IMG/VR virus record: IMGVR_UViG_2585427763_000009
Direction: 5' to 3' (one strand)
Source: a virus
Lineage: Duplodnaviria > Heunggongvirae > Uroviricota > Caudoviricetes
Length of the DNA: 23,766 nucleotides
Part shown: positions 1 through 23,766 of the stretch, one piece after another
Numbering within the stretch: the stretch's first letter is position 1
Layout: each line of letters begins with the position of its first letter
Position numbers and translations under genes: made by a program
The notes under the pieces: generated by a model
Told to the model about the DNA's origin: nothing
What the model saw: the letters and a program-made list of their open reading frames with translations, nothing else
The model's database searches: none

Positions 1-1011
1 TTATAACGTCACTCCGCCTTTTAGTGGATTCAGAGCGACGGCATTTTGCAGATAGTCAGGCGCAAGGTGCGCATAGGCCATCGTCTGCTGAATGCTCGCA
101 TGTCCCAGAATCTGTTGCAGTGCGATTATATTGCCCCCATTCATCATGAAATGGCTTGCGAATGTATGCCGCAGGATGTGGGTTGCCTGATTGGGGGGTA
201 TATCAGGTTTCACTCTGCGTAAAATCCCGCAAAATTTCTCATAATCAACTTTGAATAATTTGGCGCTGGCCTCCTCTTTAACTTTTTTCTCCAGTTCCTC
301 AGAAATCGGCACGGTTCGCTTTTTACCGTTTTTGGTTTTCAGGAAGGTAACCCTGCAATTTGTAATCTGTGCTGGTTTTAGCGTGGCAACTTCCGTCCAT
401 CTTCCTCCAGTGCTCAGACATAAAAGCGCGACAAGTAAGTCATCACCAGCCAAAACATTTAACAGTTTTTCGATTTCTGCTTTTTCCAGGAACGTCATTT
501 CAGGGTTGGCTTCCGCCAGTGGCGGCAGTCCGTGAATTGGGTGTTGCCCGGAAAATTCATCCAATTGAATTAATTTTGTGAACATGCCGGATAATCGGTA
601 CATGTCACGGTTTATCGTTGCGGCACTGATACCATCACGTAGTCGCATGGAACGATAATCCATCAAAGCCCTTTTGCTCATCCTGCTCACTGGTATATCA
701 CCTATGCCGCTGATGGTTTTGAGTAGATGATTAAACTCTTTTGTTCCATGCTCGTGGTTTTGCCCGTGATATTTCCACCAGATGTCCAGCAACTCACTCA
801 AAGTCCGGCGGTCTGCTCGCTGGCCTCCCCATTCTTTCTGACTGGCATTGGCGATTGTGTATCGCTCAAATGCTAGTGCTTCAGCTTTTCTTTCGAATTT
901 CCTGCGGATGCGTTTTCCGTCGCGGCCGCGAGGTCTAATGTCCACTTCATAGCGACCATCATCGAGCTTCTTAATTGCCATAAGAAAGCCCTCCGGCGCT
1001 GTATTCACCAT
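1..1011 (-). CDS. int: Tyrosine-recombinase integrase of a P2-like prophage (336 aa); complete, stop codon at window position 1-3
   Basis: Full-length reverse-strand ORF; C-terminal region has the tyrosine-recombinase pattern (HTFASHFMMNGGNIIALQQILGHASIQQTMAYAHL); sits next to repressor C and cox as in P2. No search run. Confidence 0.88.
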   Translation of the reverse strand: MVNTAPEGFLMAIKKLDDGRYEVDIRPRGRDGKRIRRKFERKAEALAFERYTIANASQKEWGGQRADRRTLSELLDIWWKYHGQNHEHGTKEFNHLLKTISGIGDIPVSRMSKRALMDYRSMRLRDGISAATINRDMYRLSGMFTKLIQLDEFSGQHPIHGLPPLAEANPEMTFLEKAEIEKLLNVLAGDDLLVALLCLSTGGRWTEVATLKPAQITNCRVTFLKTKNGKKRTVPISEELEKKVKEEASAKLFKVDYEKFCGILRRVKPDIPPNQATHILRHTFASHFMMNGGNIIALQQILGHASIQQTMAYAHLAPDYLQNAVALNPLKGGVTL

Positions 1012-6107: not shown

Positions 6108-6482
6108 ATGGGGAAGCAAGGCAAAGGCAAAGGCAACAAAAATCAGGTTAAGGTTACGTGGGCTCAGGCGTGGCGGGATGTAATGATAAGAGCCATGTCT
6201 AATGGTCAGTTGATACCTATTACCATCAGTATTATTTTAATGATTGCTGCATGGAGGTTACCAAAAACAGACTTGTCCAATTTAGCCTTCTCTATTGTTG
6301 ATGGCTTTAAGGAGCATTCCTTGGTTGGTTGGGCTATCTCGGTAATAGTGGGTTTGGCTTGGTCTGCACATGCGCGAATCATGAGGCGCTGTTTTAGTTC
6401 CGAGGCACAGAGAATCGGTAACGAGAAAACAAAGTATCAACAAAGACAGACCACTCAAGCCTTGGGTACAAGTGATAAATAG
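6108..6482 (+). CDS. Small membrane protein, two predicted transmembrane helices (124 aa; true start may be the ATG at 6183)
   Basis: AT-rich ORF; hydrophobic segments LIPITISIILMIAAWRL and LVGWAISVIVGLAWSAHA; first gene after A in the cargo slot; a GGCGGGA Shine-Dalgarno-like run precedes the 6183 ATG. Confidence 0.5.
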   Translation: MGKQGKGKGNKNQVKVTWAQAWRDVMIRAMSNGQLIPITISIILMIAAWRLPKTDLSNLAFSIVDGFKEHSLVGWAISVIVGLAWSAHARIMRRCFSSEAQRIGNEKTKYQQRQTTQALGTSDK

Positions 6483-6502
6483 TTGTTTATTTAGGAGTTA
6501 TT

Positions 6503-7060: not shown

Positions 7061-7062
7061 AA

Positions 7063-7088
7063 ATCACCCCTTAGGGGGTGATTTTTTT
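7063..7088 (+). terminator. Rho-independent terminator after the two-membrane-protein operon
   Basis: Perfect hairpin ATCACCCC-TTAG-GGGGTGAT followed by TTTTTTT, immediately after the stop at 7060. Confidence 0.65.
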
Positions 7089-7299
7089 ACATGACTTTTG
7101 ATTAGCTGACATTGTAAATCCGCATGTATCAGATGCATTGTTTTGCATGTGGAAATGGGTGTTTTCACTGCCAGCTATCGCTACATGTAGCAAAAACACG
7201 GGCTTAATAAGAAATCATTCTGCCATAAGGCATAACTTCCCCGCGTGCTCAGGTATTGACGTCATAGATATGGATCTTTTTTAATCAAGGTATGGTATT

Positions 7300-8247
7300 A
7301 TGAAGATATTTATTAGTTGGTCAGGTCAGGACAGCCTGGAGATAGCAAAAGTATTACGGGATTGGATACCGAATGTTATTCAAGTAGCTGAGCCGTACGT
7401 ATCAGCGGAAGATATTGATAAAGGCACTCGCTGGGCGACTGATATATCAAAGGAACTTGATGACTCTTCTTATGGGATTATTTGCCTTACAAAAAATAAT
7501 ATTAATGCACCGTGGATAAATTTTGAGGCGGGTGCTTTAGGTAAAAAGGTTGATAAGAGCCGGGTTAGTCCTTTCTTGTTTAAAATTAAACCATCTGAGA
7601 TAACAGGCCCAATATTACAATTCCAGTATACTCGTTCGGATGATAAGAACGATATTTTGAAGTTGATGTTGTCAATAAATAATCAAGCAGGATTTTTGAC
7701 TGAAGAACGCTTAACTAAAGCTTTCGAGCAATGGTGGCCAAGTTTAGAGCGTGAGTTAGATAACATTCAAGATATTAACCCTGTAGATAAAGATTCCACT
7801 AAAAAAACAAAAGGTGATTCGACTTCTGAGATACAAAATCTTTCCAAAATTGTTGAAAGTTTGCTGGATATTAGCCGAACAAATCACCAATTATTGCGTG
7901 ATCCAGCATCATTATTGCCAGAAGAATATGTTAGCAAAATAATAAACAGGGAAGGGCGTAAAGAAACTGTTTTAAAAATTGTAGCTTCTGATTTATTATC
8001 CATGCATCATTCACTAATTCGTGTAAAAAGAAGATTTATTCGTCGTGGTATTGATGAAACATCTAGGAGCGAGTTAATTGAATCATTAAATAAAATGATA
8101 ATGGATTGTTCTAGAGTAATCGCTCACTTAGATAATTATTGTGGGGCTTCATCAAACAATATGTTCAATAGTGCGCTTAGATTGCGGACCAGAAATTTAA
8201 TTGACATGATGGATGAGGAGGATGCAGAACGGGATGAAATGGAATAA
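7300..8247 (+). CDS. TIR-domain protein (N-terminal TIR-like fold ~aa 1-150, C-terminal helical domain of unknown function; 315 aa)
   Basis: N-terminus KIFISWSGQDS (bacterial TIR beta-A strand pattern) and SYGIICLTKNNINAPWINFEAGAL (TIR S-x-W-x-x-x-E pattern, candidate catalytic Glu76 at nt 7525-7527); AT-rich; motif-level recognition only, no search. Confidence 0.6.
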   Translation: MKIFISWSGQDSLEIAKVLRDWIPNVIQVAEPYVSAEDIDKGTRWATDISKELDDSSYGIICLTKNNINAPWINFEAGALGKKVDKSRVSPFLFKIKPSEITGPILQFQYTRSDDKNDILKLMLSINNQAGFLTEERLTKAFEQWWPSLERELDNIQDINPVDKDSTKKTKGDSTSEIQNLSKIVESLLDISRTNHQLLRDPASLLPEEYVSKIINREGRKETVLKIVASDLLSMHHSLIRVKRRFIRRGIDETSRSELIESLNKMIMDCSRVIAHLDNYCGASSNNMFNSALRLRTRNLIDMMDEEDAERDEME

Positions 8248-8791
8248 TCAATTTTGACTAATCATAAATAATTTTGCATATATAAACTTATAATGCCGCA
8301 GCCGCTATTTTTCAGCGGCTGTATATCGCTTATAATGGGTATGTTATTTTTATTTTGATAAAATCATTAAAATTGTCGATGTTATATGAATGCACATGTA
8401 TTATTAATGTTAGAAGATTATGCCTGCTTACGGCTATTGTGCTGAATTCAACTATGAACGCATCAGTATTAAAATCGTTCCATGAAATGTTCTTCGTCTA
8501 CAGCAGATGATGGGCAACGAAAAAATGACGCTGAGTGAGTTGGTCGGGGAGAATTGTTAGAGGTATTTATGGAGTGGTTTAATAATATCGGTCAATCCTG
8601 AGTTGCAGCATCACATAGACGATAGGGAATCTCTCCAGTCGTTCTGGAATGGCAGCGTTGAACAACAAGCACAGCGAGGCGTTAGATGCCCATCAGATTG
8701 ACACAGAGGGTTTATGAATCGCTGGGATTTACTTAGTTTGAAAAATAATATATTTATATGTTTTTGTATTGTGTTTGTTAAGGAGTTTGGA

Positions 8792-8998
8792 TTGAAAAGA
8801 AAACTGATTTGTGTTATGGCTTTTTGGGGGGCGTTGCTGGCTGGTTGTAATGAGAGTAATAAAAAAGAAGTTGAGGGTTGTATTGAAAGAGGTGTCCAAT
8901 ATTTTATAGAGATTGGTTCTTACCCTAAATTAAGTGATGGGCGTGATGCTGTAAAAGTTGCTACTGAACGTTGTAATAGAACAATAACGGCTTTCTGA
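8792..8998 (+). CDS. Small predicted lipoprotein (69 aa from TTG 8792; longer frame opens at ATG 8714)
   Basis: AAGGAG Shine-Dalgarno 6 nt upstream of TTG 8792; N-terminus KRKLICVMAFWGALLAGC is a classic lipoprotein signal with lipobox LAGC; mature part has 3 Cys. The 8714 start would give an atypically long leader. Confidence 0.5.
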   Translation: MKRKLICVMAFWGALLAGCNESNKKEVEGCIERGVQYFIEIGSYPKLSDGRDAVKVATERCNRTITAF

Positions 8999-9000
8999 TA

Positions 9001-9918
9001 ATGGATTATACGAGCTATATAATAGGACAGCTTCAGGTTGAGGATATTATTGATGCAATTAAAGGCGTTAATAATACTAATGTCATAAAAGATTATGTGC
9101 TGCCTGTAGTATTACCAATTATATCTTCTGTGCTGAGTTACTTTATTGCAACTAGGTTGTTTTATCGGCAGGAGGACCTTAAAGCACAAAGAAGAAAGGT
9201 AAGCGTTGTAAATAAATGTATTTATGACTACTTTTCTGCAATGACAACGTTGTTGCAAATTAAAGGGAATTATTATGGTGGGGTAAGTATAAGTGAAAAT
9301 CCTATCGAGAGGGCTTTAGCTTTTCCTGTTGTGGTTTTTTCTGGTGCTCCTCTATCATCAGATTTAAGTGAGTTGGCCTGTATATTGAGTCAAAAGGGAG
9401 TAGGGAATAATAGAGAGCCAGCAAAGACTACTAACTGGGGGGATGCTTTTGCTGTTAGTGATATAGCAAGAAGGTTTAACAGCCTATTGGCTGCATTAAA
9501 TGTTAGGAATGATTTTGATGACACCTATAGAGGAATGATTATTGAATCAACAGGTTCACCTTTGCCTACGATGCGTTTTAAAAATGATGATATTGTTAAT
9601 GCTATAGGTAGTAATAAGGCAGCTTATTACATTGATATTACTGAGCAAATAATGATTATGATAGATGTTTTGTTGCTTGATATTAATCTGTTGCTCAAAG
9701 AGTTGCCATTGTATGCTGAATCGCTGTTTGACAAAAGAGTAATGCAAGAAGATTCAGGGATTCTTAAATTCAATGATTTGCACGAACGTTTTCCTCTACT
9801 TATGAAACCTGTAACGCCACCTTCGATTAAACTCATGTCTGATTATTTGGGGTACAGTGAAGATGAGATCTTACGACGCTATCCATACCCGTTCTTTAAT
9901 ATGCATGATTGTGAATGA
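9001..9918 (+). CDS. Hypothetical membrane-anchored protein (305 aa), translationally coupled to the upstream lipoprotein gene
   Basis: ATG 2 nt after the lipoprotein stop (TGATAATG); one hydrophobic helix (~aa 32-54, VLPVVLPIISSVLSYFIATRLF); AT-rich; no motif I recognise. Confidence 0.55.
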   Translation: MDYTSYIIGQLQVEDIIDAIKGVNNTNVIKDYVLPVVLPIISSVLSYFIATRLFYRQEDLKAQRRKVSVVNKCIYDYFSAMTTLLQIKGNYYGGVSISENPIERALAFPVVVFSGAPLSSDLSELACILSQKGVGNNREPAKTTNWGDAFAVSDIARRFNSLLAALNVRNDFDDTYRGMIIESTGSPLPTMRFKNDDIVNAIGSNKAAYYIDITEQIMIMIDVLLLDINLLLKELPLYAESLFDKRVMQEDSGILKFNDLHERFPLLMKPVTPPSIKLMSDYLGYSEDEILRRYPYPFFNMHDCE

Positions 9919-11233: not shown

Positions 11234-12042
11234 CAGTAAAACTCCAGAATGGTGGATGTCAGCGGGGTGCTGATACCGGCGGTGAGTGGCTCATTTAACA
11301 GGGCGTGCATGGTCGCCCAGGCGAGGTCGGCGTGGCTGGCTTCCTCGCTACGGCTGGCCTCATAGGTGGCGCTGCGTCCGCTGCTGGTCATGGTCTTGCG
11401 GATAGCCATGAACGAGCTGGTGATGTCGGTGGCGCTGCGTCCGCTGCTGGTCATGGTCTTGCGGATAGCCATGAACGAGCTGGTGATGTCGGTGGCGCTG
11501 CGTCCGCTGCTGGTCATGGTCTTGCGGATAGCCATGAACGAGCTGGTGATGTCGGTGGCGCTGCGTCCGCTGCTGGTCATGGTCTTGCGGATAGCCATGA
11601 ACGAGCTGGTGATGTCGGTGGCGCTGCGTCCGCTGCTGGTCATGGTCTTGCGGATAGCCATGAACGAGCTGGTGATGTCGGTGGCGCTGCGTCCGCTGCT
11701 GGTCATGGTCTTGCGGATAGCCATGAACGAGCTGGTGATGTCGGTGGCGCTGACGTCATATTCCAGACAGCCACGGCGGATGACGTCTTTTGCCTTGAGC
11801 ACCATTGCGGTTTTCATTTCCGGCGTGTAGCGGATATCGCGTGCGGCGGGATAGAACGAGCGCACGAGCTGGAACACGCCGACACCGAGGCCGGTGGCAT
11901 CAATTCCGATGTATTCGACGTTGTATTTTTCGGTGAGTTTGCGGATGGATTCCGCCTGAGTGGCAAAGTCCATGCCTTTCCACTGGTGACGCTCAAGTAT
12001 TCTGAATTTACCTCCGGCCACCACCGGCGGTGCCAGCACCAC
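11233..12042 (-). pseudogene. P: 3' remnant of terminase ATPase/nuclease subunit gene P: 5'-truncated, carrying an expanded in-frame tandem repeat
   Basis: Reverse-strand frame ends 1 nt into the Q start (P2 P-Q arrangement) and contains a terminase nuclease-like motif (YIGIDATGLGVGV), but only ~270 codons remain versus ~590 in P2 gpP; the upstream partner on the + strand is lysozyme K, not O/N/M. Confidence 0.7.
11371..11748. repeat. Perfect tandem repeat, 6 copies of a 63-bp unit (in frame; encodes SATDITSSFMAIRKTMTSSGR x6 on the reverse strand)
   Basis: Unit GCTGCGTCCGCTGCTGGTCATGGTCTTGCGGATAGCCATGAACGAGCTGGTGATGTCGGTGGC starts at 11371, 11434, 11497, 11560, 11623 and 11686 with no mismatches; phase is ambiguous by about 6 nt because the flanks share GGTGGC / GCTG. 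Confidence 0.9.
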
Positions 12043-12058
12043 GCATCCGGCGCTGGCC

Positions 12059-12502
12059 GTGTCCGAAGGGACGGCGAATCATCCGCTGACGAAAAACCGG
12101 GGCTATGACGTGATAGTCACCGGACTGGACGGAAAGCCGGAAATTTTCACCGACTACAGTGACCACCCGTTCGCACATGGTCGACCGGCGAAGGTGTTTA
12201 ACCGTCGCGGTGAAAAATCCACGGCCTCCGGTCGCTATCAGCAGCTTTACCTGTTCTGGCCGCATTACCGCAAACAGCTTGCCCTGCCGGATTTCAGTCC
12301 GTTGTCACAGGACAGGCTCGCCATTCAGTTGATCCGCGAACGCGGTGCACTGGATGACATCCGGGCGGGACGCATTGAGCGCGCCATTTCACGCTGTCGC
12401 AATATCTGGGCGTCCCTGCCGGGTGCCGGTTACGGTCAGCGTGAGCATCCACTGGAAAAACTGGTCACCGTCTGGCGTACCGCCGGCGGCGTACCGGCTT
12501 AA
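12059..12502 (+). pseudogene. K: Endolysin (lysozyme) gpK lacking its first ~18 codons; a GTG at 12059 could still start a 147-aa product
   Basis: Translation SEGTANHPLTKNRGYDVIVTGLDGKPEIFTDYSDHPFAHGRPAKVFNRRGEKSTASGRYQQLYLFWPHYRK matches remembered P2 gpK from about residue 19 to the end; no in-frame ATG upstream; holin gene Y is absent. Confidence 0.7.
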
Positions 12503-12516
12503 ACGGAGTAAACACC

Positions 12517-12942
12517 ATGAAGAAATTATCCCTTTCACTGATGCTGAATGTGCCGCTGGCGCTGATGCTGGCACTGTCCCTGATTTACCCGCAGAGCGTG
12601 GCCGTCAGTTTTGTCGCCGCCTGGGCGATTCTGGCGACGGTTATCTGTGTGGTTGCCGGTGGTGTCGGCGTGTATGCCACTGAGTATGTGCTGGAACGCT
12701 ACGGGCGGGAGCTGCCGCCGGAATCGCTGGCCGTGAAGATTGTCACGTCGCTGTTTTTGCAGCCGGTGCCGTGGCGCAGACGGGCAGTAGCTCTGGTGGT
12801 GATGGTGGCGACGTTTATCTCGCTGGTCGCTGCCGGGTGGATTTTTACCGCGCTGATTTATCTTGTGGCGTCGCTGTTTTTCCGGCTGATACGTAAAGCC
12901 TGCCGTCAGCGTTTTGAGGGGCGGGAACCATGTCAAAGCTGA
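12517..12942 (+). CDS. lysA: Lysis regulatory membrane protein LysA (141 aa)
   Basis: 141-aa multi-pass hydrophobic protein directly after K, GGAG Shine-Dalgarno; same size and position as P2 lysA. Confidence 0.78.
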   Translation: MKKLSLSLMLNVPLALMLALSLIYPQSVAVSFVAAWAILATVICVVAGGVGVYATEYVLERYGRELPPESLAVKIVTSLFLQPVPWRRRAVALVVMVATFISLVAAGWIFTALIYLVASLFFRLIRKACRQRFEGREPCQS

Positions 12943-13355
12943 TGATTGTGCTGGTTGTGCTGTTATCGCTGGCGGTGGCGGGGCTGTTTCTGGTGAAGCA
13001 TGAAAACGCCAGCCTGCGCGCCTCGCTGGACAGGGCGAACAACGTCGCCAGTGAACAGCAGACGACCATCACCATGCTGCAAAATCAGCTTCATGTTGCC
13101 ATCACCAGGGCAGACAAAAACGAGCTGGCGCAGGTGGCACTGCGTCAGGAACTGGAGAACGCCGCGAAGCGTGAAGCACAGCGCGAGAAAACCATCACGA
13201 GGTTACTTAATGAAAACGAAGATTTTCGCCGCTGGTATGGCGCTGACCTGCCTGATGCTGTGCGCCGGTTGCACCAGCGCCCCGCCTGCACCGACGCCAG
13301 TGATTGTCGCCAACGCCTGCCCGAAAGTGAGCCTTTGCCCGATGCCGGGCAGTGA
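12930..13355 (+). CDS. lysB: Inner-membrane spanin LysB (Rz-like, 141 aa)
   Basis: N-terminal membrane anchor then coiled-coil-like sequence; same size and position as P2 lysB; the lysC frame is embedded in it. Confidence 0.78.
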   Translation: MSKLMIVLVVLLSLAVAGLFLVKHENASLRASLDRANNVASEQQTTITMLQNQLHVAITRADKNELAQVALRQELENAAKREAQREKTITRLLNENEDFRRWYGADLPDAVRRLHQRPACTDASDCRQRLPESEPLPDAGQ

Positions 13356-13500
13356 CCCGGAGACGAACGGCGATTTAAGTGCCGATATCCGGCAGCTTGA
13401 GAACGCGCTGGCACGTTGTGCCAGCCAGGTAAAAATGATTAAACACTGTCAGGACGAAAACGATGCTCAAACCCGACAGCCTGCGCAGGGCGCTGACTGA
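13210..13500 (+). CDS. lysC: Outer-membrane lipoprotein spanin LysC (Rz1-like, 96 aa), embedded in the +1 frame of lysB
   Basis: ATG at 13210; lipoprotein signal MKTKIFAAGMALTCLMLCAGC (lipobox LCAGC); proline-rich mature region; embedded spanin arrangement as in P2. Confidence 0.7.
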   Translation: MKTKIFAAGMALTCLMLCAGCTSAPPAPTPVIVANACPKVSLCPMPGSDPETNGDLSADIRQLENALARCASQVKMIKHCQDENDAQTRQPAQGAD

Positions 13501-13930
13501 TGCCGTCACGGTGCTGAAAACTAACCCCGATATGCTGCGGATATTCGTGGATAACGGGAGTATTGCCTCCACACTGGCGGCGTCGTTGTCATTCGAAAAG
13601 CGTTACACGCTCAATGTCATTGTGACCGACTTTACCGGTGATTTTGACCTGCTCATCGTGCCGGTGCTGGCGTGGCTGCGGGAAAATCAGCCCGACATCA
13701 TGACCACCGACGAAGGCCAGAAAAAGGGCTTCACGTTTTATGCAGACATCAACAATGACAGCAGCTTTGATATCAGTATCAGCCTGATGCTGACCGAGCG
13801 CACGCTGGTCAGTGAGGTTGACGGTGCGCTGCATGTGAAGAATATCCCGGAACCTCCGCCGCCGGAGCCAGTCAATCGCCCGATGGAGCTTTATATCAAT
13901 GGTGAACTGGTGAGCAAGTGGGATGAATGA
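13463..13930 (+). CDS. R: Tail completion protein gpR (155 aa)
   Basis: 155 aa, same size and order as P2 gpR. Confidence 0.82.
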   Translation: MLKPDSLRRALTDAVTVLKTNPDMLRIFVDNGSIASTLAASLSFEKRYTLNVIVTDFTGDFDLLIVPVLAWLRENQPDIMTTDEGQKKGFTFYADINNDSSFDISISLMLTERTLVSEVDGALHVKNIPEPPPPEPVNRPMELYINGELVSKWDE

Positions 13931-14375
13931 GTTTAAGCGTTTTGAAGACCGACTGACCGGACTGATTGAATCGCTGTCACCGTCTGGGCGTCGGCGACTG
14001 AGTGCAGAACTGGCGAAACGTCTGCGGCAGAGTCAGCAGCGTCGGGTGATGGCACAGAAAGCTCCGGACGGCACACCCTACGCACCACGCCAGCAGCAGA
14101 GCGCCAGAAAAAAGACCGGTCGCGTTAAGCGAAAAATGTTTGCGAAACTTATCACCAGTCGTTTTTTGCATATCCGCGCCAGCCCTGAACAGGCATCAAT
14201 GGAGTTTTACGGCGGGAAGGCACCGAAAATCGCCAGTGTGCATCAGTTCGGTCTGTCGGAAGAAACCCGGAAAGACGGTAAGAAAATTGATTATCCGGCG
14301 CGTCCTCTGCTCGGCTTTACCGGTGAGGATGTGCAGATGATTGAAGAGATTATCCTGGCTCACCTTGAGCGTTAG
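13923..14375 (+). CDS. S: Tail completion protein gpS (150 aa)
   Basis: 150 aa, same size and order as P2 gpS; start overlaps the R stop. Confidence 0.82.
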   Translation: MNEFKRFEDRLTGLIESLSPSGRRRLSAELAKRLRQSQQRRVMAQKAPDGTPYAPRQQQSARKKTGRVKRKMFAKLITSRFLHIRASPEQASMEFYGGKAPKIASVHQFGLSEETRKDGKKIDYPARPLLGFTGEDVQMIEEIILAHLER

Positions 14376-14406
14376 TTTTATCCAGACAGAGGCTGATGCG
14401 CAATTA

Positions 14407-14439
14407 AACATTGAGCGGCCATGCTGGTCGCTCAATGTT
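14407..14439. terminator. Hairpin between convergent genes (S on +, cargo gene on -); candidate bidirectional terminator
   Basis: Perfect 11-bp inverted repeat AACATTGAGCG / CGCTCAATGTT around an 11-nt loop, in the 71-bp gap between two convergent stop codons; flanking T/A runs are weak. Confidence 0.4.
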
Positions 14440-14446
14440 TAGAGGT

Positions 14447-15232
14447 TTATGAGTGATTTTTATTTGATGCTTTGTATTCTAAAACCTTCTTATTGGCGTA
14501 AAAGAATTTTGTATATGACAGGAATATAACCAGACCTGAAGTGAAATAGACGAGGGATAGTATTAATAATGCTTTTTTGCGACTGTTATTATCTTTAATC
14601 TCCAGGCTTAACCATTCGGAGTCCTCCTCGTTTAGCTGTAAGAGCTTATTGCAGGCGATTTCAGGAAGTGTGTCTTTTATAAATACGTTTTGCAGTCTCT
14701 TGCAATCGGCAAGGCTATAAGTTTTATTAAATTCAACTGCTTTATTTTTGAAGGATAAAAGAACTTTGTCACTATAAACATAGTACATCATGTTTTTATA
14801 TGGTATGCCTATGGCATCCCTTACTATAACGGATTGTTCGTTGTGTATGTAACATGCGAGGAGAATGTAAAAAATACTGGCCAGAATTACAATTATTGTT
14901 TTAATTATGTGTGGTGGTTTTGTTATGTCACCCCAGATGCGAGTAAGGAAAAAATACGATGTTTTTAGTTTTCCATCAATCAGTCCCTGCTGTATCATTC
15001 TCACATTTTCAATGCCTGATACATTGATTCCGTTAATTATTTTAAATAGTTGAATGTCGCGCCACTCGCGGTCAAGTCTTTTTAATTTTTTGTCTGAATA
15101 TCCAAAATTGAAATAATGTGCAATAAGCCTCATAAGGTTACTTTTACCAAAGCTAAAAAATGCTAATACTGCAAAGCTACAAAGGAAAAAAACGATTAGC
15201 CCCCACACATTAGTCACATTATAGCTGACCAT
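14447..15232 (-). CDS. Hypothetical membrane protein (261 aa, about 3 transmembrane helices), moron in the S/V slot
   Basis: Strongly AT-rich reverse-strand ORF between S and V where P2 carries the non-essential orf30; hydrophobic helices at the N-terminus, middle (IIKTIIVILASIFYILLACYI) and C-terminus (ALLILSLVYFTSGLVIFL). Confidence 0.6.
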   Translation of the reverse strand: MVSYNVTNVWGLIVFFLCSFAVLAFFSFGKSNLMRLIAHYFNFGYSDKKLKRLDREWRDIQLFKIINGINVSGIENVRMIQQGLIDGKLKTSYFFLTRIWGDITKPPHIIKTIIVILASIFYILLACYIHNEQSVIVRDAIGIPYKNMMYYVYSDKVLLSFKNKAVEFNKTYSLADCKRLQNVFIKDTLPEIACNKLLQLNEEDSEWLSLEIKDNNSRKKALLILSLVYFTSGLVIFLSYTKFFYANKKVLEYKASNKNHS

Positions 15233-15315
15233 TACGCTCTCCTTGAATGTTGTCTGGTAGTTCTACAAATGAATCCAGATAGCATAACTTTTATATATTG
15301 TGCAATCTCACATGC

Positions 15316-15951
15316 ATGAACACTCTCGCAAATATTCAGGAACTCGCGCGCGCACTGCGCAACATGATTCGCACCGGCATTATCGTCGAAACCGACCTTA
15401 ACGCCGGTCGCTGCCGCGTGCAGACCGGCGGCATGTGCACCGACTGGCTTCAGTGGCTGACCCATCGCGCCGGTCGTTCGCGCACATGGTGGGCACCTTC
15501 CGTGGGGGAACAGGTGCTGATTCTGTCCGTGGGCGGTGAACTCGACACGGCGTTTGTTCTGCCGGGGATTTATTCCGGCGATAATCCCGCGCCGTCTGCG
15601 TCGGCGGATGCCCTGCATATCCGTTTCCCTGACGGGGCGGTGATTGAGTATGAACCCGAAACCAGTGCGCTCACGGTAAGCGGAATTAAAACGGCCAGCG
15701 TGACGGCTTCCGGTTCTGTTACTGCCACTGTGCCGGTGGTCATGGTGAAAGCGTCAACCCGCATCACCCTGGACACACCGGAGGTGGTCTGCACCAACAG
15801 GCTGATTACCGGCACGCTGGAAGTGCAGAAGGGCGGGACGATGCGCGGCAACATTGAACACACCGGCGGTGAACTCTCATCAAACGGTAAGGTACTGCAT
15901 ACCCATAAACACCCCGGCGACAGCGGCGGCACAACCGGGAGTCCTCTATGA
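15316..15951 (+). CDS. V: Baseplate spike/assembly protein gpV (211 aa from ATG 15316)
   Basis: Matches P2 gpV size and order; start set at MNTLANIQ; stop overlaps the W start. Confidence 0.85.
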   Translation: MNTLANIQELARALRNMIRTGIIVETDLNAGRCRVQTGGMCTDWLQWLTHRAGRSRTWWAPSVGEQVLILSVGGELDTAFVLPGIYSGDNPAPSASADALHIRFPDGAVIEYEPETSALTVSGIKTASVTASGSVTATVPVVMVKASTRITLDTPEVVCTNRLITGTLEVQKGGTMRGNIEHTGGELSSNGKVLHTHKHPGDSGGTTGSPL

Positions 15952-16295
15952 CAGCGCGTTATCTCGGAATGAATCGCAGTGATGGCCTGACGGTCACTGA
16001 CCTTGAGCATATCAGCCAGAGTATCGGCGATATCCTGCGCACACCGGTCGGCTCACGGGTGATGCGCCGTGATTACGGCTCGTTGCTGGCGTCAATGATT
16101 GACCAGCCGCAGACCCCGGCGCTTGAGTTGCAGATTAAGGTCGCCTGTTACATGGCGGTGCTGAAATGGGAACCCCGCGTCACCCTGTCATCCGTCACCA
16201 CGGCGCGCAGTTTTGACGGGCGAATGACGGTCACGTTAACCGGTCAGCACAACGACACCGGTCAGCCACTTTCGTTAACCATCCCTGTGAGTTGA
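15948..16295 (+). CDS. W: Baseplate wedge protein gpW (115 aa)
   Basis: 115 aa, same size and order as P2 gpW. Confidence 0.85.
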   Translation: MTARYLGMNRSDGLTVTDLEHISQSIGDILRTPVGSRVMRRDYGSLLASMIDQPQTPALELQIKVACYMAVLKWEPRVTLSSVTTARSFDGRMTVTLTGQHNDTGQPLSLTIPVS

Positions 16296-16299
16296 AACC

Positions 16300-17208
16300 A
16301 TGCCGATTATCGACCTGAACCAGCTACCCGCACCGGATGTGGTCGAGGAGCTGGACTTTGAAACCATTCTTGCCGAACGCAAGGCGACACTGATTTCCCT
16401 TTACCCGGAAGACCAGCAGGAGGTGGTCGCCCGTACCCTGACGCTGGAATCGGAGCCTCTCGTCAAACTGCTGGAAGAAAATGCTTATCGTGAGCTTATC
16501 TGGCGTCAGCGTGTGAATGAGGCCGCACGGGCGGTGATGCTGGCCTGTGCCGCCGGTAATGACCTTGATGTGATTGGTGCCAATTACAACACCACACGCC
16601 TGATTATCATCCCGGCAGATGATTCGACCATCCCGCCGACACCGGCAGTGATGGAATCTGACACCGATTATCGTCTGCGTATTCAGCAGGCGTTTGAAGG
16701 TTTAAGCGTTGCCGGGTCGGTGGGAGCCTATCAGTATCATGGTCGCAGTGCCGACGGGCGTGTCGCGGATATCTCTGTCACCAGTCCGTCTCCGGCCTGT
16801 GTCACTATCTCCGTGCTGTCCCGAGAAAATAACGGTGTCGCATCCGAAGACCTGCTGGCTGTGGTGCGTAACGCTCTTAATGGCGAGGACGTCAGGCCGG
16901 TGGCTGACCGTGTGACCGTGCAGTCTGCCGCCATTGTTGAATACCAGATAAACGCCACGCTGTATCTTTACCCTGGTCCAGAAAGCGAACCCATCCGCGC
17001 CGCCGCCGTGAAAAAACTGGAAGCGTACATCACGGCACAGCACCGGCTGGGGCGCGACATCCGTCTGTCTGCCATTTATGCCGCTTTGCATGTGGAAGGC
17101 GTGCAGCGTGTCGAACTGACTGCACCGCTGGCTGACATCGTGCTCAACAGTACGCAGGCGTCTTTCTGCACCGAATACAGCGTCGTGACCGGAGGCTCGG
17201 ATGAGTGA
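16300..17208 (+). CDS. J: Baseplate assembly protein gpJ (302 aa)
   Basis: 302 aa, same size and order as P2 gpJ. Confidence 0.85.
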   Translation: MPIIDLNQLPAPDVVEELDFETILAERKATLISLYPEDQQEVVARTLTLESEPLVKLLEENAYRELIWRQRVNEAARAVMLACAAGNDLDVIGANYNTTRLIIIPADDSTIPPTPAVMESDTDYRLRIQQAFEGLSVAGSVGAYQYHGRSADGRVADISVTSPSPACVTISVLSRENNGVASEDLLAVVRNALNGEDVRPVADRVTVQSAAIVEYQINATLYLYPGPESEPIRAAAVKKLEAYITAQHRLGRDIRLSAIYAALHVEGVQRVELTAPLADIVLNSTQASFCTEYSVVTGGSDE

Positions 17209-17731
17209 TTCGCGACTGCTGCCGACCGGCTCATCACCGCTTGAGGTCGCCGCCGCAAAAGCCTGTGCGGAAATTGAAAAAACACCGGTCAGTATTCGTG
17301 AGCTGTGGAACCCGGACTCCTGTCCGGCAAATCTGCTGCCGTGGCTGGCGTGGGCGTTTTCGGTCGACAGGTGGGATGAAAAGTGGCCGGAAGCGACAAA
17401 ACGCGCCGTTATCCGCGATGCCTATTTCATCCACTGTCATAAAGGCACTATCGGCGCAATCCGACGCGTGGTGGAGCCGCTCGGCTATCTCATCAACGTG
17501 ACGGAGTGGTGGGAAAACAGTGACCCGCCCGGCACCTTCCGGCTTGATATTGGTGTACTGGAAAGCGGTATCACAGAGGCAATGTATCAGGAAATGGAAC
17601 GGCTGATTGCCGATGCCAAACCTGCAAGCCGCCACCTTATTGGCCTGAACATTACCCGGGACATTCCCGGCTATCTGTTCGCCGGTGGTGTGGCTTACGA
17701 CGGCGATGTAATTACGGTTTACCCCGGATAA
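17201..17731 (+). CDS. I: Baseplate/tail protein gpI (176 aa)
   Basis: 176 aa, same size and order as P2 gpI; start overlaps the J stop. Confidence 0.85.
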   Translation: MSDSRLLPTGSSPLEVAAAKACAEIEKTPVSIRELWNPDSCPANLLPWLAWAFSVDRWDEKWPEATKRAVIRDAYFIHCHKGTIGAIRRVVEPLGYLINVTEWWENSDPPGTFRLDIGVLESGITEAMYQEMERLIADAKPASRHLIGLNITRDIPGYLFAGGVAYDGDVITVYPG

Positions 17732-17741
17732 GTGAGGAATA

Positions 17742-19787
17742 ATGAGCATAAAATTCAGAACCGTTATCACCACTGCCGGTGCAGCAAAGCTGGCAGCGGC
17801 AACCGCGCCGGGAGGGCGGAAGGTCAACATTACCACGATGGCCGTCGGGGATGGCGGTGGTAAATTGCCTGTCCCGGATGCCGGACAGACCGGGCTTATC
17901 CATGAAGTCTGGCGACATGCGCTGAACAAAATCAGCCAGGACAAACGAAACAGTAATTATATTATCGCCGAGCTGGTTATTCCGCCGGAGGTGGGCGGTT
18001 TCTGGATGCGTGAGCTTGGCCTGTACGATGATGCGGGAACATTAATTGCCGTGGCGAACATGGCCGAAAGTTATAAGCCAGCTCTTGCCGAAGGCTCAGG
18101 GCGTTCGCAGACCTGTCGCATGGTCATCATCGTCAGCAGTGTGGCCTCAGTGGAGCTGACCATTGACACCACAACGGTGATGGCGACTCAGGATTACGTT
18201 GATGACAAAATTGCAGAGCATGAACAGTCACGACGTCACCAGGACGCCTCGCTGACCGCAAAAGGTTTTACTCAGTTAAGCAATGCGACCAACAGCACGT
18301 CTGAAACACTGGCCGCAACGCCGAAAGCGGTTAAGGCCGCATATGACCTTGCTAACGGGAAATATACCGCACAGGACGCTACCACAGCGCGAAAAGGTCT
18401 TGTCCAGCTAAGTAGTGCGACCAACAGCATATCTGAAACGCTCGCCGCAACACCAAAAGCCGTTAAGACGGTAATGGATGAAACGAACAAGAAAGCGCCA
18501 TTAAACAGCCCTGCACTGACCGGAACGCCAACGACGCCAACTGCGCGACAGGGAACGAATAATACTCAGATCGCAAACACGGCTTTCGTTATGGCCGCGA
18601 TTGCCGCCCTTGTAGACTCGTCGCCTGACGCACTGAATACGCTGAACGAGCTGGCGGCGGCGCTGGGCAATGACCCGAATTTTGCTACCACCATGACTAA
18701 TGCGCTTGCGGGTAAGCAACCGAAAGATGCCACTTTGACGGCGCTGGCGGGGCTTGCTACTGCGGCAGACAGGTTTCCGTATTTTACGGGGAATGATGTT
18801 GCCAGCCTGGCGACCCTGACAAAAGTCGGGCGGGATATTCTGGCTAAATCGACCGTTGCCGCTGTTATCGAATATCTCGGTTTACAGGAAACGGTAAACC
18901 GAGCCGGGAACGCCGTGCAAAAAAATGGCGATACTTTGTCCGGCGGGCTTACTTTTGAAAACGACTCAATCCTTGCCTGGATTCGAAATACTGACTGGGC
19001 GAAGATTGGATTTAAAAATGATGCCGATGGTGACACTGATTCATATATGTGGTTTGAAACAGGTGACAACGGCAATGAATATTTCAAATGGAGAAGTCGC
19101 CAGAGCACCACAACAAAAGACCTGATGAATCTTAAATGGGATGCTCTGTATGTTCTTGTTAAAGCCCTTTTCAGCAGTGAAGTAAAAATATCTACAGTCA
19201 ATGCACTGAGGATATTTAATTCATCTTTTGGGGCTATTTTTCGCCGTTCTGAAGAAAACCTGTATATCATTCCTACACGAGAAAATGAGGGTGAAAATGG
19301 AGATATTGGGCCATTAAGGCCATTCGGCATCAACTTAAGAACAGGAGTTGTGTCTGTTGGTAATGGTGCCAGGATTGATGGCGGGCTGGCACTTGGCACG
19401 AATAACGCGTTGGGTGGGAACTCTATTGTTCTTGGTGATAACGACACCGGATTTAAACAAAATGGCGATGGTAATCTGGATGTTTATGCTAATAACGTCC
19501 ATGTTATGCGCTTTGTTTCCGGAAGCATTCAAAGTAATAAGACCATAAATATTACGGGGCGTGTTAATCCCTCGGATTACGGTAACTTTGATTCCCGCTA
19601 TGTGAGAGATATCAGACTTGGCACACGTGTTGTCCAGACCATGCAGAAAGGGGTGATGTATGAGAAAGCAGGGCACGTAATTACCGGGCTTGGTATTGTC
19701 GGTGAAGTCGATGGTGATGACCCCGCAGTATTCAGGCCAATACAAAAATACATCAATGGCACATGGTATAACGTCGCACAGGTGTAA
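17742..19787 (+). CDS. H: Tail fiber protein gpH (681 aa) with an internal ~25-aa repeat and a lower-GC C-terminal receptor-binding region
   Basis: N-terminus MSIKFRTVITTAGAAKLAAATAPGG matches remembered P2 gpH; tail-fiber repeat copies ...QLSNATNSTSETLAATPKAVKAAYD... and ...QLSSATNSISETLAATPKAVKTVMD... Confidence 0.85.
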   Translation: MSIKFRTVITTAGAAKLAAATAPGGRKVNITTMAVGDGGGKLPVPDAGQTGLIHEVWRHALNKISQDKRNSNYIIAELVIPPEVGGFWMRELGLYDDAGTLIAVANMAESYKPALAEGSGRSQTCRMVIIVSSVASVELTIDTTTVMATQDYVDDKIAEHEQSRRHQDASLTAKGFTQLSNATNSTSETLAATPKAVKAAYDLANGKYTAQDATTARKGLVQLSSATNSISETLAATPKAVKTVMDETNKKAPLNSPALTGTPTTPTARQGTNNTQIANTAFVMAAIAALVDSSPDALNTLNELAAALGNDPNFATTMTNALAGKQPKDATLTALAGLATAADRFPYFTGNDVASLATLTKVGRDILAKSTVAAVIEYLGLQETVNRAGNAVQKNGDTLSGGLTFENDSILAWIRNTDWAKIGFKNDADGDTDSYMWFETGDNGNEYFKWRSRQSTTTKDLMNLKWDALYVLVKALFSSEVKISTVNALRIFNSSFGAIFRRSEENLYIIPTRENEGENGDIGPLRPFGINLRTGVVSVGNGARIDGGLALGTNNALGGNSIVLGDNDTGFKQNGDGNLDVYANNVHVMRFVSGSIQSNKTINITGRVNPSDYGNFDSRYVRDIRLGTRVVQTMQKGVMYEKAGHVITGLGIVGEVDGDDPAVFRPIQKYINGTWYNVAQV

Positions 19788-19790
19788 TTT

Positions 19791-20318
19791 ATGCAGCATT
19801 TAAAAAATATTACTGCGGGTAATCCAAAAACTGTTGCCCAATATCAACTGACAAAAAATTTTGATGTTATCTGGTTATGGTCCGAAGAGGGAAAAAACTG
19901 GTATGAGGAAGTAAGTAATTTTCAGGAAGACACGATAAAGATTGTTTACGACGAGAATAATATAATTGTCGGCATCACCAGAGATGCTTCAACGCTTAAC
20001 CCTGAAGGTTTCAGCGTTGTCGAGGTTCCTGATATTACCTCCAACCGACGTGCTGATGACTCAGGTAAATGGATGTTTAAGGATGGTGCCGTGATTAAGC
20101 GGATTTATACGGCAGATGAACAGGAGCAACAGGCAGAATCACAAAAAGCAGCTTTACTTTCCGAAGCGGAAAGCGTTATTCAGCCACTGGAACGCGCTGT
20201 CAGGCTGAATATGGCGACGGATGAGGAATGCGCACGACTGGAGTCATGGGAACGCTACAGCGTTCTGATCAGCCGTGTGGATCCTGCAAATCCTGAATGG
20301 CCGGAAATGCCGCAATAA
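19791..20318 (+). CDS. G: Tail fiber assembly chaperone gpG (175 aa)
   Basis: 175 aa directly after H; same size and order as P2 gpG. Confidence 0.82.
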
Positions 20319-20539
20319 GTTGTATAAGCTCTGGTGTGAGATTACATATCTATGGCACAGAGTAAAGCCTAATCTGACAGGCCGCTCTGTGTCTGGAGTA
20401 GATTTTAGTAAAGCATTATTTTATTAGTGCAAATTCTAATCAATACATTTTATGTATATGATATCCTACGGACTTTAATGACTTGGTTTAGGCTAACCAG
20501 ATAACACTGAAGGAATATTTTTGATAATTAAGGTGCGGT

Positions 20540-21133
20540 ATGTTTACTAAGCGACGATTAAAAAATATTAACTGGGAGGCAAGTTCAGTGATTCTTGCTA
20601 TGGTTCTCTTTGTTGGAAATATATTTTATACAAATCATCGTGATGATATAAGCATGGAGGCTGAGAGGGACAGTATCAGAACAATGTTTGCATATGAAAT
20701 CGCTAATAACCATCGCGCTCTCACTTTTCTTGATAAAACGAGACATATTGGCTTTGACGAAAATTCGGAGCATTTTGTTGGCGAGCCTTTTGCCATTAAT
20801 GTCAAATCATTAGGGGGACCTCGCTTACAGATTGCATTAAACCAGACTGATAAAGTGTTTAAATCCTACTTCGGCGAATTAAGTAAGCTTGATAAAGAGG
20901 ATGTTACTCTTCTTATGGACTATTACCATGAGCAAAGCATCCTGCTGGAGCGTGTAAAATCTACGTTACAGAAGATGAAAAGTGGTAATGATATTAAAGT
21001 TGATATTGATGGTTGCTTATTAGAAGAACACTTCATGAATGAGCTTAATCTTTCTAATATTTTGCTTAAACGCTATAGCTATTTATTATCACAACACGCT
21101 AAGGAACATAAAACAAAAGATTTACATAATTGA
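20540..21133 (+). CDS. Hypothetical membrane-anchored protein (197 aa) in the Z/fun slot between G and FI
   Basis: AT-rich ORF after a 220-bp AT-rich spacer; single N-terminal hydrophobic helix (SSVILAMVLFVGNIFY) then a soluble domain; no motif I recognise. Confidence 0.55.
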   Translation: MFTKRRLKNINWEASSVILAMVLFVGNIFYTNHRDDISMEAERDSIRTMFAYEIANNHRALTFLDKTRHIGFDENSEHFVGEPFAINVKSLGGPRLQIALNQTDKVFKSYFGELSKLDKEDVTLLMDYYHEQSILLERVKSTLQKMKSGNDIKVDIDGCLLEEHFMNELNLSNILLKRYSYLLSQHAKEHKTKDLHN

Positions 21134-21340
21134 TAATCTGCTAATGGTTATTCATGGGGTAACTATGTTTTATATGTAATCCAGCCCAGATGAATTATTG
21201 ATTCTGGATAATAACCGCAGAGCGGCATATACCCTGACAGGCAAATGTCCGCTTCTTGCTCAAAGCAGACTGTCAGATTTGATAACTTTTGGGCTATGTA
21301 AACTGTCAGTCGGAAAATGAGTGTGTACAAATCAGGACAG

Positions 21341-21365
21341 GCGGGCGAATTGCCCGCATTTTCTT
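21341..21365 (+). terminator. Rho-independent terminator upstream of the FI remnant
   Basis: Hairpin GCGGGC-GAATT-GCCCGC followed by ATTTTCTTT. Confidence 0.5.
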
Positions 21366-21462
21366 TATCTGTTGTTTCATCCACTGACCAGCCAGGTCAA
21401 ATAGCGTCTCATGTACTACCCAACGGAAAATAGTTGCACCCATTAACCACGGAGTTAAACGG

Positions 21463-21576
21463 ATGAGTGACTATCATCACGGCGTGCAGGTGCTGGAGAT
21501 TAACGACGGCACCCGCGTCATTTCCACCGTATCCACAGCCATTGTCGGCATGGTCTGCACGGCTAGCCTCCCGTAA
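21463..21576 (+). pseudogene. FI: Tail sheath gene FI remnant: first ~35 codons only, then a premature stop at the deletion junction
   Basis: Translation [35 protein letters not shown] matches the remembered P2 gpFI N-terminus, then LP-stop. Confidence 0.7.
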
Positions 21577-22327
21577 CAGGCTGGAAGCCAGTGTCGCTCC
21601 GTCACTGGCCGGAATTAAAATCCCGCACATCGACCAGTCGCAGGAGTCCGATGCGAAATTCCTGACCCGTCTTGCTGAACGCAACGGCGGTGAGGTGTCG
21701 GTAAAAATGGGAAAACTGCTGTTTCTCAAAGCGGGGCAGGGGGGGACGGGCAGCGGGAAAAAAATCCCGCAGATTACCATCACCCGCAGCGACGGCGACC
21801 GTCATCATTTTGCGATTGCTGACCGTGGAGCCTACACAGGCGTAACGGCAAAGTGGTTACACACCAAAGACCCGAAGCCGCAAAAGCAGAAGGTAAAACT
21901 GAAACGCAAAAAGAAAGAGAAACACCTGCGCGCACTGGAGCACCCGAAAGCGAAACCGGTCACGCAGAAGAAAGAGCCAAAAGTACCGGAAGCGCGCGAA
22001 GGTGAATACATGGCCGGTGAGGCTGACAACGTTTTTGCCCTGACCACGGTATATGCCACGAAAGCACAGGCCATGCGCGCCGCTCAGGCGAAGTGGGATA
22101 AACTGCAACGGGGTGTTGCGGAGTTCTCCATCAGCCTGGCTACTGGTCGGGCAGATATTTACACGGAAACGCCGGTCAGAGTGTCAGGCTTTAAGCGCGT
22201 CATAGACGAGCAGGACTGGACAATCACTAAGGTGACACATTTTCTGAATAATAGCGGCTTCACGACGTCCCTGGAGCTTGAGGTCAGGCTTTCTGATGTG
22301 GAGTACGAAACAGAAGATGATGAGTGA
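21569..22327 (+). pseudogene. D: 3' portion of tail/late gene D, lacking its 5' region and native start
   Basis: Reading frame out of phase with the FI remnant; translation ...KFLTRLAERNGGEVSVKMGKLLFLKAG...VRLSDVEYETEDDE resembles the C-terminal part of P2 gpD (~387 aa); FII, E, T and U are missing between FI and D. Confidence 0.65.
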
Positions 22328-22408
22328 TGTAATTTATTTATCTGTTTGTTTTATAAGGATAAATTAACTAAAATGGCACCATCAACAAAACCGGAAGAGG
22401 TGCTCGCG

Positions 22409-22627
22409 ATGTTTCATTGTCCTTTATGCCAGCATGCCGCACATGCGCGTACAAGCCGCTATATCACTGACACGACAAAAGAGCGTTATCACCAGTGTCA
22501 GAACGTGAATTGCAGCGCCACGTTCATCACTTATGAGTCGGTACAGCGATACATCGTGAAGCCGGGAGAAGTCCATGCCGTAAGGCCGCACCCGTTGCCG
22601 TCAGGACAGCAAATTATGTGGATGTAA
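22409..22627 (+). CDS. ogr: Late-gene transcriptional activator Ogr (zinc-finger, 72 aa)
   Basis: MFHCPLCQHAAHARTSRYITDTTKERYHQCQNVNCSATF... matches remembered P2 Ogr (CxxC...CxxxxC zinc finger); last phage gene before host DNA. Confidence 0.88.
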   Translation: MFHCPLCQHAAHARTSRYITDTTKERYHQCQNVNCSATFITYESVQRYIVKPGEVHAVRPHPLPSGQQIMWM

Positions 22628-22637
22628 TCACAAAAAT

Positions 22638-22664
22638 AGCCCCTCAGTTGAGGGGCTTTATTTA
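22638..22664 (+). terminator. Rho-independent terminator after ogr
   Basis: Hairpin AGCCCCTC-AGTT-GAGGGGCT followed by a T-rich tract, 10 nt after the ogr stop. Confidence 0.6.
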
Positions 22665-22755
22665 TGGTCGATGTGGACGCTATGTGGACAGCGTTTGATA
22701 TAAATCCATTTATATCATCAGGTTAGGTGCTTTTTTGTGACACCATCCCTGTCTT

Positions 22756-22782
22756 CCCCCACATGATGTGGGGGTTTTTTTT
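22756..22782 (+). terminator. Second hairpin + T-run in the prophage-host junction
   Basis: CCCCCACAT-G-ATGTGGGGG followed by TTTTTTTT; about 80 nt upstream of fieF. Confidence 0.5.
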
Positions 22783-22863
22783 ATCCTCAATTTGCCTGCT
22801 GCTTAATGCATTGCAGATGATTTGCTTCCGTTATACTACCGTCAGTTGATAGCGGGAGTATTT

Positions 22864-23766
22864 ATGAATCAATCTTATGGACGGCTGGTCAGTCGGGCGG
22901 CGATTGCTGCGACGGCGATGGCTTCGCTGCTATTGCTGATTAAAATTTTTGCATGGTGGTATACCGGGTCGGTGAGTATTCTCGCCGCGCTGGTGGATTC
23001 GCTGGTGGATATCGGCGCGTCGTTGACGAATTTACTGGTGGTGCGATATTCCCTGCAACCTGCCGACGATAATCACTCGTTTGGTCACGGTAAAGCTGAG
23101 TCCCTCGCGGCGCTGGCGCAAAGTATGTTTATCTCCGGTTCGGCACTATTCCTGTTTTTGACGGGTATTCAACATCTGGTATCTCCAACACCGATGACAG
23201 ATCCAGGCGTCGGGGTTATCGTGACAATTGTGGCGCTAATTTGTACGATTATCCTTGTCTCGTTTCAGCGTTGGGTGGTGCGCCGGACGCAAAGCCAGGC
23301 GGTGCGGGCTGATATGCTACATTACCAGTCTGATGTTATGATGAACGGCGCAATTCTGCTGGCGCTGGGGTTGTCCTGGTACGGCTGGCATCGCGCCGAT
23401 GCTCTGTTTGCATTGGGGATCGGCATCTATATTTTATATAGCGCGTTACGCATGGGATATGAGGCGGTACAGTCATTACTGGATCGCGCATTGCCTGATG
23501 AGGAACGGCAAGAAATTATTGATATCGTGACTTCCTGGCCGGGTGTTAGCGGCGCTCACGATCTTCGCACGCGGCAGTCAGGGCCGACCCGCTTTATTCA
23601 GATTCATTTGGAAATGGAAGACTCTCTGCCTTTGGTTCAGGCACATATGGTGGCGGATCAGGTAGAGCAGGCTATTTTACGGCGTTTTCCGGGATCGGAT
23701 GTGATTATCCATCAGGACCCCTGTTCCGTCGTACCCAGGGAGGGTAAACGGTCTATGCTTTCATAA
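22864..23766 (+). CDS. fieF: Host cation-diffusion-facilitator ferrous-iron/zinc efflux transporter FieF (YiiP), 300 aa, complete
   Basis: Translation from ATG 22864 ([49 protein letters not shown]...) matches remembered E. coli FieF; the window ends on its stop codon. Confidence 0.85.

Follow-up and report, generated by a model that had tools for sequence, protein, structure and literature searches.

A 5,438-bp deletion in a P2-like prophage of Escherichia coli ends at a recurrent breakpoint in the hub gene D

We analysed a stretch of 23,766 nucleotides (hereafter the window) that holds a P2-like (Peduovirus) prophage in which the sheath gene FI runs into the 3' part of the hub gene D. Very probably, this junction goes back to a single illegitimate-recombination deletion of 5,438 bp that has been inherited since, and whose D-side end fell at a hotspot. 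The FI–D deletion is ordinary prophage decay of a known kind, and it helped make the prophage defective. What appears to be new beyond such decay is that the D-side end lies in a recurrent, apparently one-sided hotspot, the partner sites of which share a motif.

Anatomy and inheritance of the FI–D junction

A sequence-only reading of the window had placed the junction within 21463–21580, and these coordinates proved accurate. Three features make up the segment:

21463..21576, plus strand: FI' remnant ORF, consisting of 35 sheath codons, Leu-Pro and TAA (from the translation)
21564..21567, plus strand: junction overlap TAGC, with the breakpoint between 21563 and 21568 (from three-way alignments)
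21564..22327, plus strand: D' remnant, D nt 401–1164, with codons 135–387 complete and in the +1 frame relative to FI'

The FI' frame begins at ATG 21463, with GGAG upstream, and stops at TAA 21574–21576. Its residues 1–35 are identical to those of full or longer FI proteins (e.g. P0003), and the translation, 35 residues followed by LP and the stop, bears out the earlier description of a sheath N-terminus of 35 codons with a two-codon tail. The D-like C-terminal sequence that had been recognised in another frame is likewise real: it runs from D nt 401 to the normal D stop at 22327 and encodes the C-terminal 253 residues of the hub protein. As this frame is +1 to FI', the fusion is out of frame, as had been proposed. 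D' is 99.6% identical to D of phage P2_AC1, and its Pfam match (Phage_GPD) covers profile positions 109–304 only, of 305.

For junction mapping, the prophage of E. coli D7 (L001) and phage P2_AC1 (L002) served as intact references. BLAST against both aligns FI up to nt 105, which corresponds to window 21567, and D from nt 401, which corresponds to window 21564; window 21248–21567 is 95–97% identical to their upstream region plus FI nt 1–105. The segment present in each reference and missing from the window measures 5,438 bp, within the 5–6 kb estimated before. By the annotation of the D7 prophage, it comprises FI codons 36–396, FII, E, E', T, U and D codons 1–134; the sheath, tube and tape measure had rightly been listed as lost, and the 5' part of D is gone in addition. 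Every base at the junction can be assigned to FI or D, with nothing inserted where FI nt 105 meets D nt 401, and the alignments to the two references show no IS end, target-site duplication, filler or att-like sequence there. Alignment to intact P2-like genomes, which the sequence-only reading had suggested as a check, displays a single clean event that took out 5,438 bp between FI codon 35 and D nt 401.

Microhomology had been suspected at about 21565–21580, and TAGC at 21564–21567 matches that expectation if the parental FI allele was GCT. At the first TAGC position, FI of both references carries C (GCC), not T; the GCT allele is found in an intact FI gene (L006) whose identity to the window is 95%. 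The 4-bp TAGC microhomology therefore holds only if the parental FI read GCT, and with GCC as in the references, terminal microhomology at the junction is absent. The junction fits a microhomology-type (illegitimate) deletion, being clean and joining two collinear parental sites with 0–4 bp shared.

Identity to P2_AC1 is 97.4% to the left of the junction (12052–21567) and 99.75% to the right of it (21564–22785). This jump may reflect ordinary mosaicism, or it may hint at different histories for the two sides.

FI' can yield no more than a peptide of 37 residues, and D' lacks an evident start site of its own for translation. It could be argued that the fusion is functional, with a GTG start at 21467 or a frameshift giving a chimera that ends in the C-terminal 253 residues of D. 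Indeed, the D frame is open from that GTG, which lies 4 nt past the FI ATG and 12 nt from GGAG, and a 261-aa D' ORF has been annotated by gene callers. However, upstream of D' this frame runs through 33 codons of FI read out of frame, which lack homology; no ribosome-binding site precedes the TTG called as a start at 21542, and the exact 286-aa product started at the GTG is on no record. Furthermore, the window holds no sheath, tube or tape measure as partners for a hub fragment. We regard a functional fusion as highly improbable.

The junction is not confined to the window. The 37-aa FI' peptide is encoded on six NCBI draft contigs from separate assemblies. One of them (L004; JORG01000123.1, strain 6-319-05_S3_C2) is 100% identical to window 11463–23766. 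A second (L005; JONF01000114.1, 6-175-07 group) differs from the window by 12 substitutions, yet carries both this junction and the other deletion junction of the prophage described below; it has one copy of a 63-bp repeat, versus six in the window. An assembly or chimera artefact might be suspected, given that the window derives from a draft genome assembled from short reads and that the junction is found in 0 of 5,426 complete E. coli genomes. Such an artefact is practically ruled out because the diverged contig has both junctions. The same junction stands on six contigs of separate assemblies, one of which has diverged in substitutions and repeat number; moreover, 4-bp overlaps are not joined by short-read assemblers, and analogous junctions occur in finished chromosomes (L008, L013). 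Thus, the deletion is older than the split of strains 6-319-05 and 6-175-07 and has been vertically inherited in one E. coli lineage. Its absence from the complete E. coli genomes makes it lineage-specific, and the exact junction 30-mer is missing both from JGI metagenome contigs and from a set of GTDB genomes, one per species.

The prophage left behind

The prophage has the gene order int-C-cox-B-A...Q-P...V-W-J-I-H-G-FI...D-ogr and is inserted between cpxP and fieF, as in intact relatives. Phage P2_AC1 aligns to 96% of the window at 98.1% identity, and the intact D7 prophage to 91% at 97.6%. Beyond the FI–D junction, the landmarks are:

1..1011, minus strand: integrase
12052..12055, no strand assigned: deletion junction 1, terminase P' joined to lysozyme K', with a GCTG overlap
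15316..20318, plus strand: V, W, J, I, H and G (baseplate and fibre), of 211, 115, 302, 176, 681 and 175 aa, equal to the P2_AC1 annotation
22409..22627, plus strand: ogr, the late-gene activator, intact; collinear with ogrK of the D7 prophage, with PF04606 (Ogr_Delta) on the identical contig L004
22739..22785, plus strand: attR core, a 47-bp repeat, 100% by BLAST to 838–884 of the D7 record, its left prophage end
near 22822 (start): fieF, a host gene

Retained are int, C, cox, B, A with a P2-type ori, the accessory cargo, the baseplate and fibre genes and ogr. The morphogenetic set is incomplete on two counts. Junction 1 marks a loss of about 5.3 kb, comprising the 5' part of P, then O, N, M, L, X, the holin gene Y and the first 47 nt of K; the FI–D junction accounts for the rest of FI, for FII to U and for the 5' part of D. 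With two deletions, one in the head and holin genes and one in the tail genes, the prophage is doubly defective. The sequence-only reading was also right that the baseplate and fibre genes are kept: V to G have the ORF lengths of P2_AC1, and they now lack a sheath, a tube, a tape measure and a complete hub. Neither the window nor the source contig, up to 10 kb from the junction, contains an intact FI–U set.

Several further features of the prophage are recorded here in their own right. A cargo block with intact ORFs (6108–9918) occupies the A–Q interval, which is variable among P2-like phages; the block includes a gene for a TIR-domain protein (7300–8247; Pfam TIR_2, E = 4.7e-10), and its arrangement is identical in the D7 prophage and P2_AC1. 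Two more intact ORFs are shared with P2_AC1 and have no Pfam match, one of 261 aa between S and V (14447–15232, minus strand) and one of 197 aa between G and FI (20540–21133, plus strand). The G–FI interval is variable, with PIN and SIR2 genes in L003 and a resolvase gene in L015. The 63-bp tandem repeat lies inside P' (11365–11757), in frame, with 6.2 copies that are 99% identical; it is single-copy in intact relatives and in the sister contig L005. Its expansion in the window may be recent, or the repeat may be of variable number, or an assembly effect may be at work. Chi (GCTGGTGG or its complement) occurs 0 times in window 1–22800 and twice in fieF, at 22989 and 23001, 12 bp apart.

A recurrent breakpoint in D

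A survey with D nt 321–480 matched 1,591 E. coli records, of which a single one lacked the full match. In this lone partial record, from strain 26561, the D fragment begins exactly at nt 401 and is joined to terminase P. Many chimeric D proteins also emerged from a protein search with the 253-residue D', and their DNA was then examined. At the DNA level, D nt 400–404 is joined to nine different left partners:

FI nt 105 (codon 35)::D, this window
P::D, L008
Q::D, L010
N::D, L011
early region (beside int-C)::D, L012
V codon 120::D, L013/14, in frame
FI codon 127::D, L015/16, in frame
J codon 58::D, L019/20, in frame
FI codon ~372::D, L021/22, in frame

A tenth junction, I::D, lies at D nt 411/412 (L017). 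The deletions at the hotspot span 5 to about 31 kb. The nt 400–404 breakpoint is used at cpxP–fieF, at trhP and at the separate locus of L012, and the I::D junction at pflB. The D alleles at the hotspot differ as well (ASRN and ATRN variants, with at most 3% nucleotide divergence). Independent events, different partners, different loci and different alleles all indicate that D nt 400–404 is a mutational deletion hotspot, and the D-side end of the FI–D deletion coincides with it.

The P::D junction of strain 26561 and the window junction share ACGG-N-TAG, which raised the question of whether the former was derived from a window-type junction. This is unlikely, since the two D' alleles differ at 24 of 764 positions, spread out, and the cargo differs.

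D is truncated elsewhere too: at nt 135 (strain ZH177), at codons 43, 63 and 101, by one internal deletion, and in yegZ of K-12. Two further junctions probably lie near codons 163 and 185 (P0048, P0079), as read from protein N-termini rather than from DNA. About half of the catalogued D truncation events end within 5 nt of each other, a share inflated by the protein query, which began at D residue 135 and favoured events at or upstream of it, and by L010, found with a pattern able to detect this breakpoint alone. With the window junction taken as the given site, 8 of the 13 other events (breakpoints in D nt 1–405) fall in the same 5-nt interval, for which a hand calculation from the event counts gives a binomial probability of ~1e-12. 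Control patterns at D nt 461, 515 and 758, run against IMG/VR, returned 0 junctions versus 1 for the hotspot, a comparison of little power; they also gave one unrelated chance match (L018). The hotspot is apparently one-sided, judging by the best 120 matches listed, and deletions running rightward from D nt 400 may exist as well. Our literature search found no account of a breakpoint hotspot in D.

Some neighbouring observations concern D and its truncations more broadly. In E. coli ZH177 (L003, NZ_CM125652.1), the trhP/ogrK locus has an independent FI::D deletion at 3448–3449, where FI nt 366 is followed by D nt 135 and the overlap is 2 bp; the PIN and SIR2 cargo genes adjoin it. The prophage of E. 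coli HVH 209 at pflB (L017, KE700922.1) has four internal deletions, namely within P, within M, Y::J-I and I::D; the overlaps are 2 bp at M, Y::J-I and I::D, and longer and imperfect within P. Finally, many frameshifted D proteins in the databases, of 132–133 aa (P0125, P0126, P0131, P0135, P0141, P0163, P0199 and P0209), end in ...RSVRLLRR and a stop. Their frameshifts lie at various upstream positions, but the proteins all stop at the TAG of D nt 401–403 (window 21564–21566), the first stop in that alternative D frame; a causal link to the hotspot is not apparent.

Origin of the D-side end and comparison with known systems

The D site reads GAGGC-GATA-GCCTC (nt 394–407; breaks are marked with a slash below) and, as a single strand, is predicted to fold, in 94% of the ensemble, into a 5-bp stem that closes a loop of 4 nt, with a dG of -4.9 kcal/mol (z = -5.4). 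The commonest break, GA/TA, falls at the apex of this loop. The hairpin was considered as a sufficient cause and set aside: comparable GC-rich 5-bp stems with 4-nt loops number 14 in the prophage, and being one of these, it cannot suffice for a hotspot. The left partners, for their part, have features in common. CGG or CGGN stands directly 5' of TA in six of the seven TA-type left sites, versus 5.1% of the prophage TA sites (p about 1e-7), and several left sites match D as CG-N-TA(G), beyond the perfect overlap. The mismatched base left of the junction is the left partner's in 7/7 products and never the A of D.

We picture the event as a single illegitimate recombination in a P2-like prophage at cpxP–fieF, in which FI nt 105 was joined to D nt 401 through 0–4 bp of microhomology (TAGC), and which removed the sheath, the tube, the tail-assembly chaperones, the tape measure and U, along with one third of the hub D at its N-terminus. 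The 3' end of the top strand at the left site (...CGG(N)TA) may have paired with the bottom strand of D at about nt 398–404 and then been extended or ligated. We infer such priming or template switching, as opposed to the annealing of two processed ends, because it is invariably the left partner that supplies the base before the junction, and because the left sites share more with D than the perfect overlap.

Why the D-side end recurs invites a stronger proposal, namely that a previously undescribed one-sided hotspot in D (nt 400–404, GCGA/TAGCC) reflects a specific DNA-processing activity that would generate or capture a strand end at this place and join it to upstream CGG(N)TA sites, a quasi-programmed route of gene loss. 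We offer this tentatively, as a possibility and not as the expected outcome. On a rival view, the D end would be set by a sequence-specific enzyme (an HUH replication protein, a relaxase, a transposase-like or another enzyme) and not by generic microhomology; the enzyme would cut at GCGA/TAGCC, hold or protect the right 5' end and link 3' ends at CGG(N)/ sites to it. Such a model would accommodate one end fixed within 5 nt while the others spread over 31 kb, the shared left motif CGG(N)TA and the constant origin of the -1 base. In addition, D nt 382–406 (GGTGCG-ATTGT-TGAGGCG-ATAGCC) recalls the nic region of the R388 oriT, GGTGCGTATTGTCT/ATAGCC: compared with the R388/TrwC nic site, GGTGCG-ATTGT and ATAGCC occur in the same order in D, 7 nt apart versus 2, and the break lies 1 nt rightward. 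The resemblance counts as a lead only; against it stand that 5-nt difference in spacing and the 1-nt offset of the break, and the left sites are unlike the R388 upstream arm. The breakpoints, moreover, scatter over nt 400–404 and 411 rather than marking one phosphodiester bond, and the window ORFs scanned show no sign of a relaxase or transposase. The nick site of the P2 A protein resembles the D site in no meaningful way, with a local score of 5 that 57% of the prophage windows reach. We hold an enzyme-set end to be rather doubtful. The R388-like stretch corresponds to 33119–33143 of the D7 record, and its last 6 nt alone remain in the window.

Other readings of the clustering fare worse. Selection could favour D kept from about residue 135, at a domain boundary or for an element needed by ogr or the host; four of the nine hotspot fusions are in frame (V120::D, J58::D, FI127::D and FI372::D), and in several remnants what is left of P2 is D'-ogr. 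Selection is nevertheless unable to yield 5-nt precision. At least five junctions further upstream in D persist (e.g. nt 135 and codons 43, 63 and 101), which argues that a start at residue 135 is not required; no D fusion comes from the window, P, Q or N junction, each being either out of frame or antisense; and K-12 retains the last 219 nt of D alone. We consider selection unlikely to be the cause. A deletion by an IS, by integrase at a secondary att site, by RecBCD stopping at Chi or by CRISPR self-targeting would invoke known causes of prophage deletion, and is scarcely credible here. The junction bases, all from FI or D, include no IS sequence or target duplication. The D site does not resemble the 47-bp att core (GACACCATCCCTGTCTTCCCCC...), and prophages that differ in integrase and occupy at least three att sites share the hotspot. 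Chi is absent from the prophage in either orientation. As for CRISPR, strain 26561 has a single match to the site, hence no spacer, and the best match in no genome is spacer-sized.

A number of narrower candidates were compared with the site and rejected. The A gene of the window carries the P2 A nick site, GCGCCTCGGAGTCCTGTCAA, near 5354–5385; as a rolling-circle pseudo-origin of the P2 A protein (GCGCCTCG/GAGTCCTGTCAA, P2 nt 29892), the D site scores 5 and the true ori 24. A Chi-like 5/8 match beside the D site is too common to mean anything. A serine invertase was considered in view of the resolvase gene upstream of FI in L015, but the 197-aa ORF at that place in the window (20540–21133) has no Pfam match. 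Compared with the sites by eye, att/Int, Xer/dif, Ter and the gyrase consensus, as well as IS5 and IS10 target sites and restriction-type TA overhangs, include none that fits all of them.

By itself, the FI–D junction marks a lineage in which a prophage has decayed in routine fashion, and it accounts for the inability to make tails and for the orphan baseplate and fibre genes. Prophage domestication is usually seen as random deletion followed by a selection filter. A site in D with half of the catalogued truncations and a shared partner motif suggests a mechanistic bias in the inactivation of P2-like prophages. If true, activity at the hotspot would mean the recurrent loss of structural genes while int, immunity, cargo and ogr stay. 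The hotspot would also provide a natural substrate, reproducible at the nucleotide level, for studies of long-range illegitimate recombination in E. coli.

Bierne, Michel and Ehrlich (1986–1997) reportedly described hotspots at which one end of the deletions is fixed, namely Ter/Tus arrest sites and rolling-circle nick sites (M13, pC194). The D hotspot resembles these in having one end fixed to a few nt and the other variable, with few bases of homology; unlike them, no Ter-like sequence, origin nick or known arrest site is recognised at nt 400–404. Glickman and Ripley (1984) are said to have associated deletion endpoints in E. coli with hairpins or quasi-palindromes, and the D breakpoint likewise falls within a short GC-rich inverted repeat, in its loop. 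Their structures, however, bring both endpoints together, whereas the partners of D are 5–31 kb away, and the 14 similar hairpins of the prophage are not known as hotspots.

Defective P2-like elements have been reported to lose mobility and structural genes while defence cargo in their variable regions stays intact (NAR 2026, PMC13586616). In contrast to the hotspot case, no recurrent nucleotide-level breakpoint in D is described there; like those elements, the window keeps its TIR-domain gene and the neighbours of that gene. The cryptic P2 remnant PR-X of K-12, which holds yegZ (a D' fragment) and ogrK, is alike in that the right end is kept (the 3' part of D, ogr and attR), and ogrK is annotated identically in it. 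The two differ in extent and place: in PR-X, at the trhP locus, D is reduced to its last 219 nt and nothing else of the phage is kept, whereas in the window 22.8 kb of prophage are left at cpxP–fieF and D is cut at nt 401.
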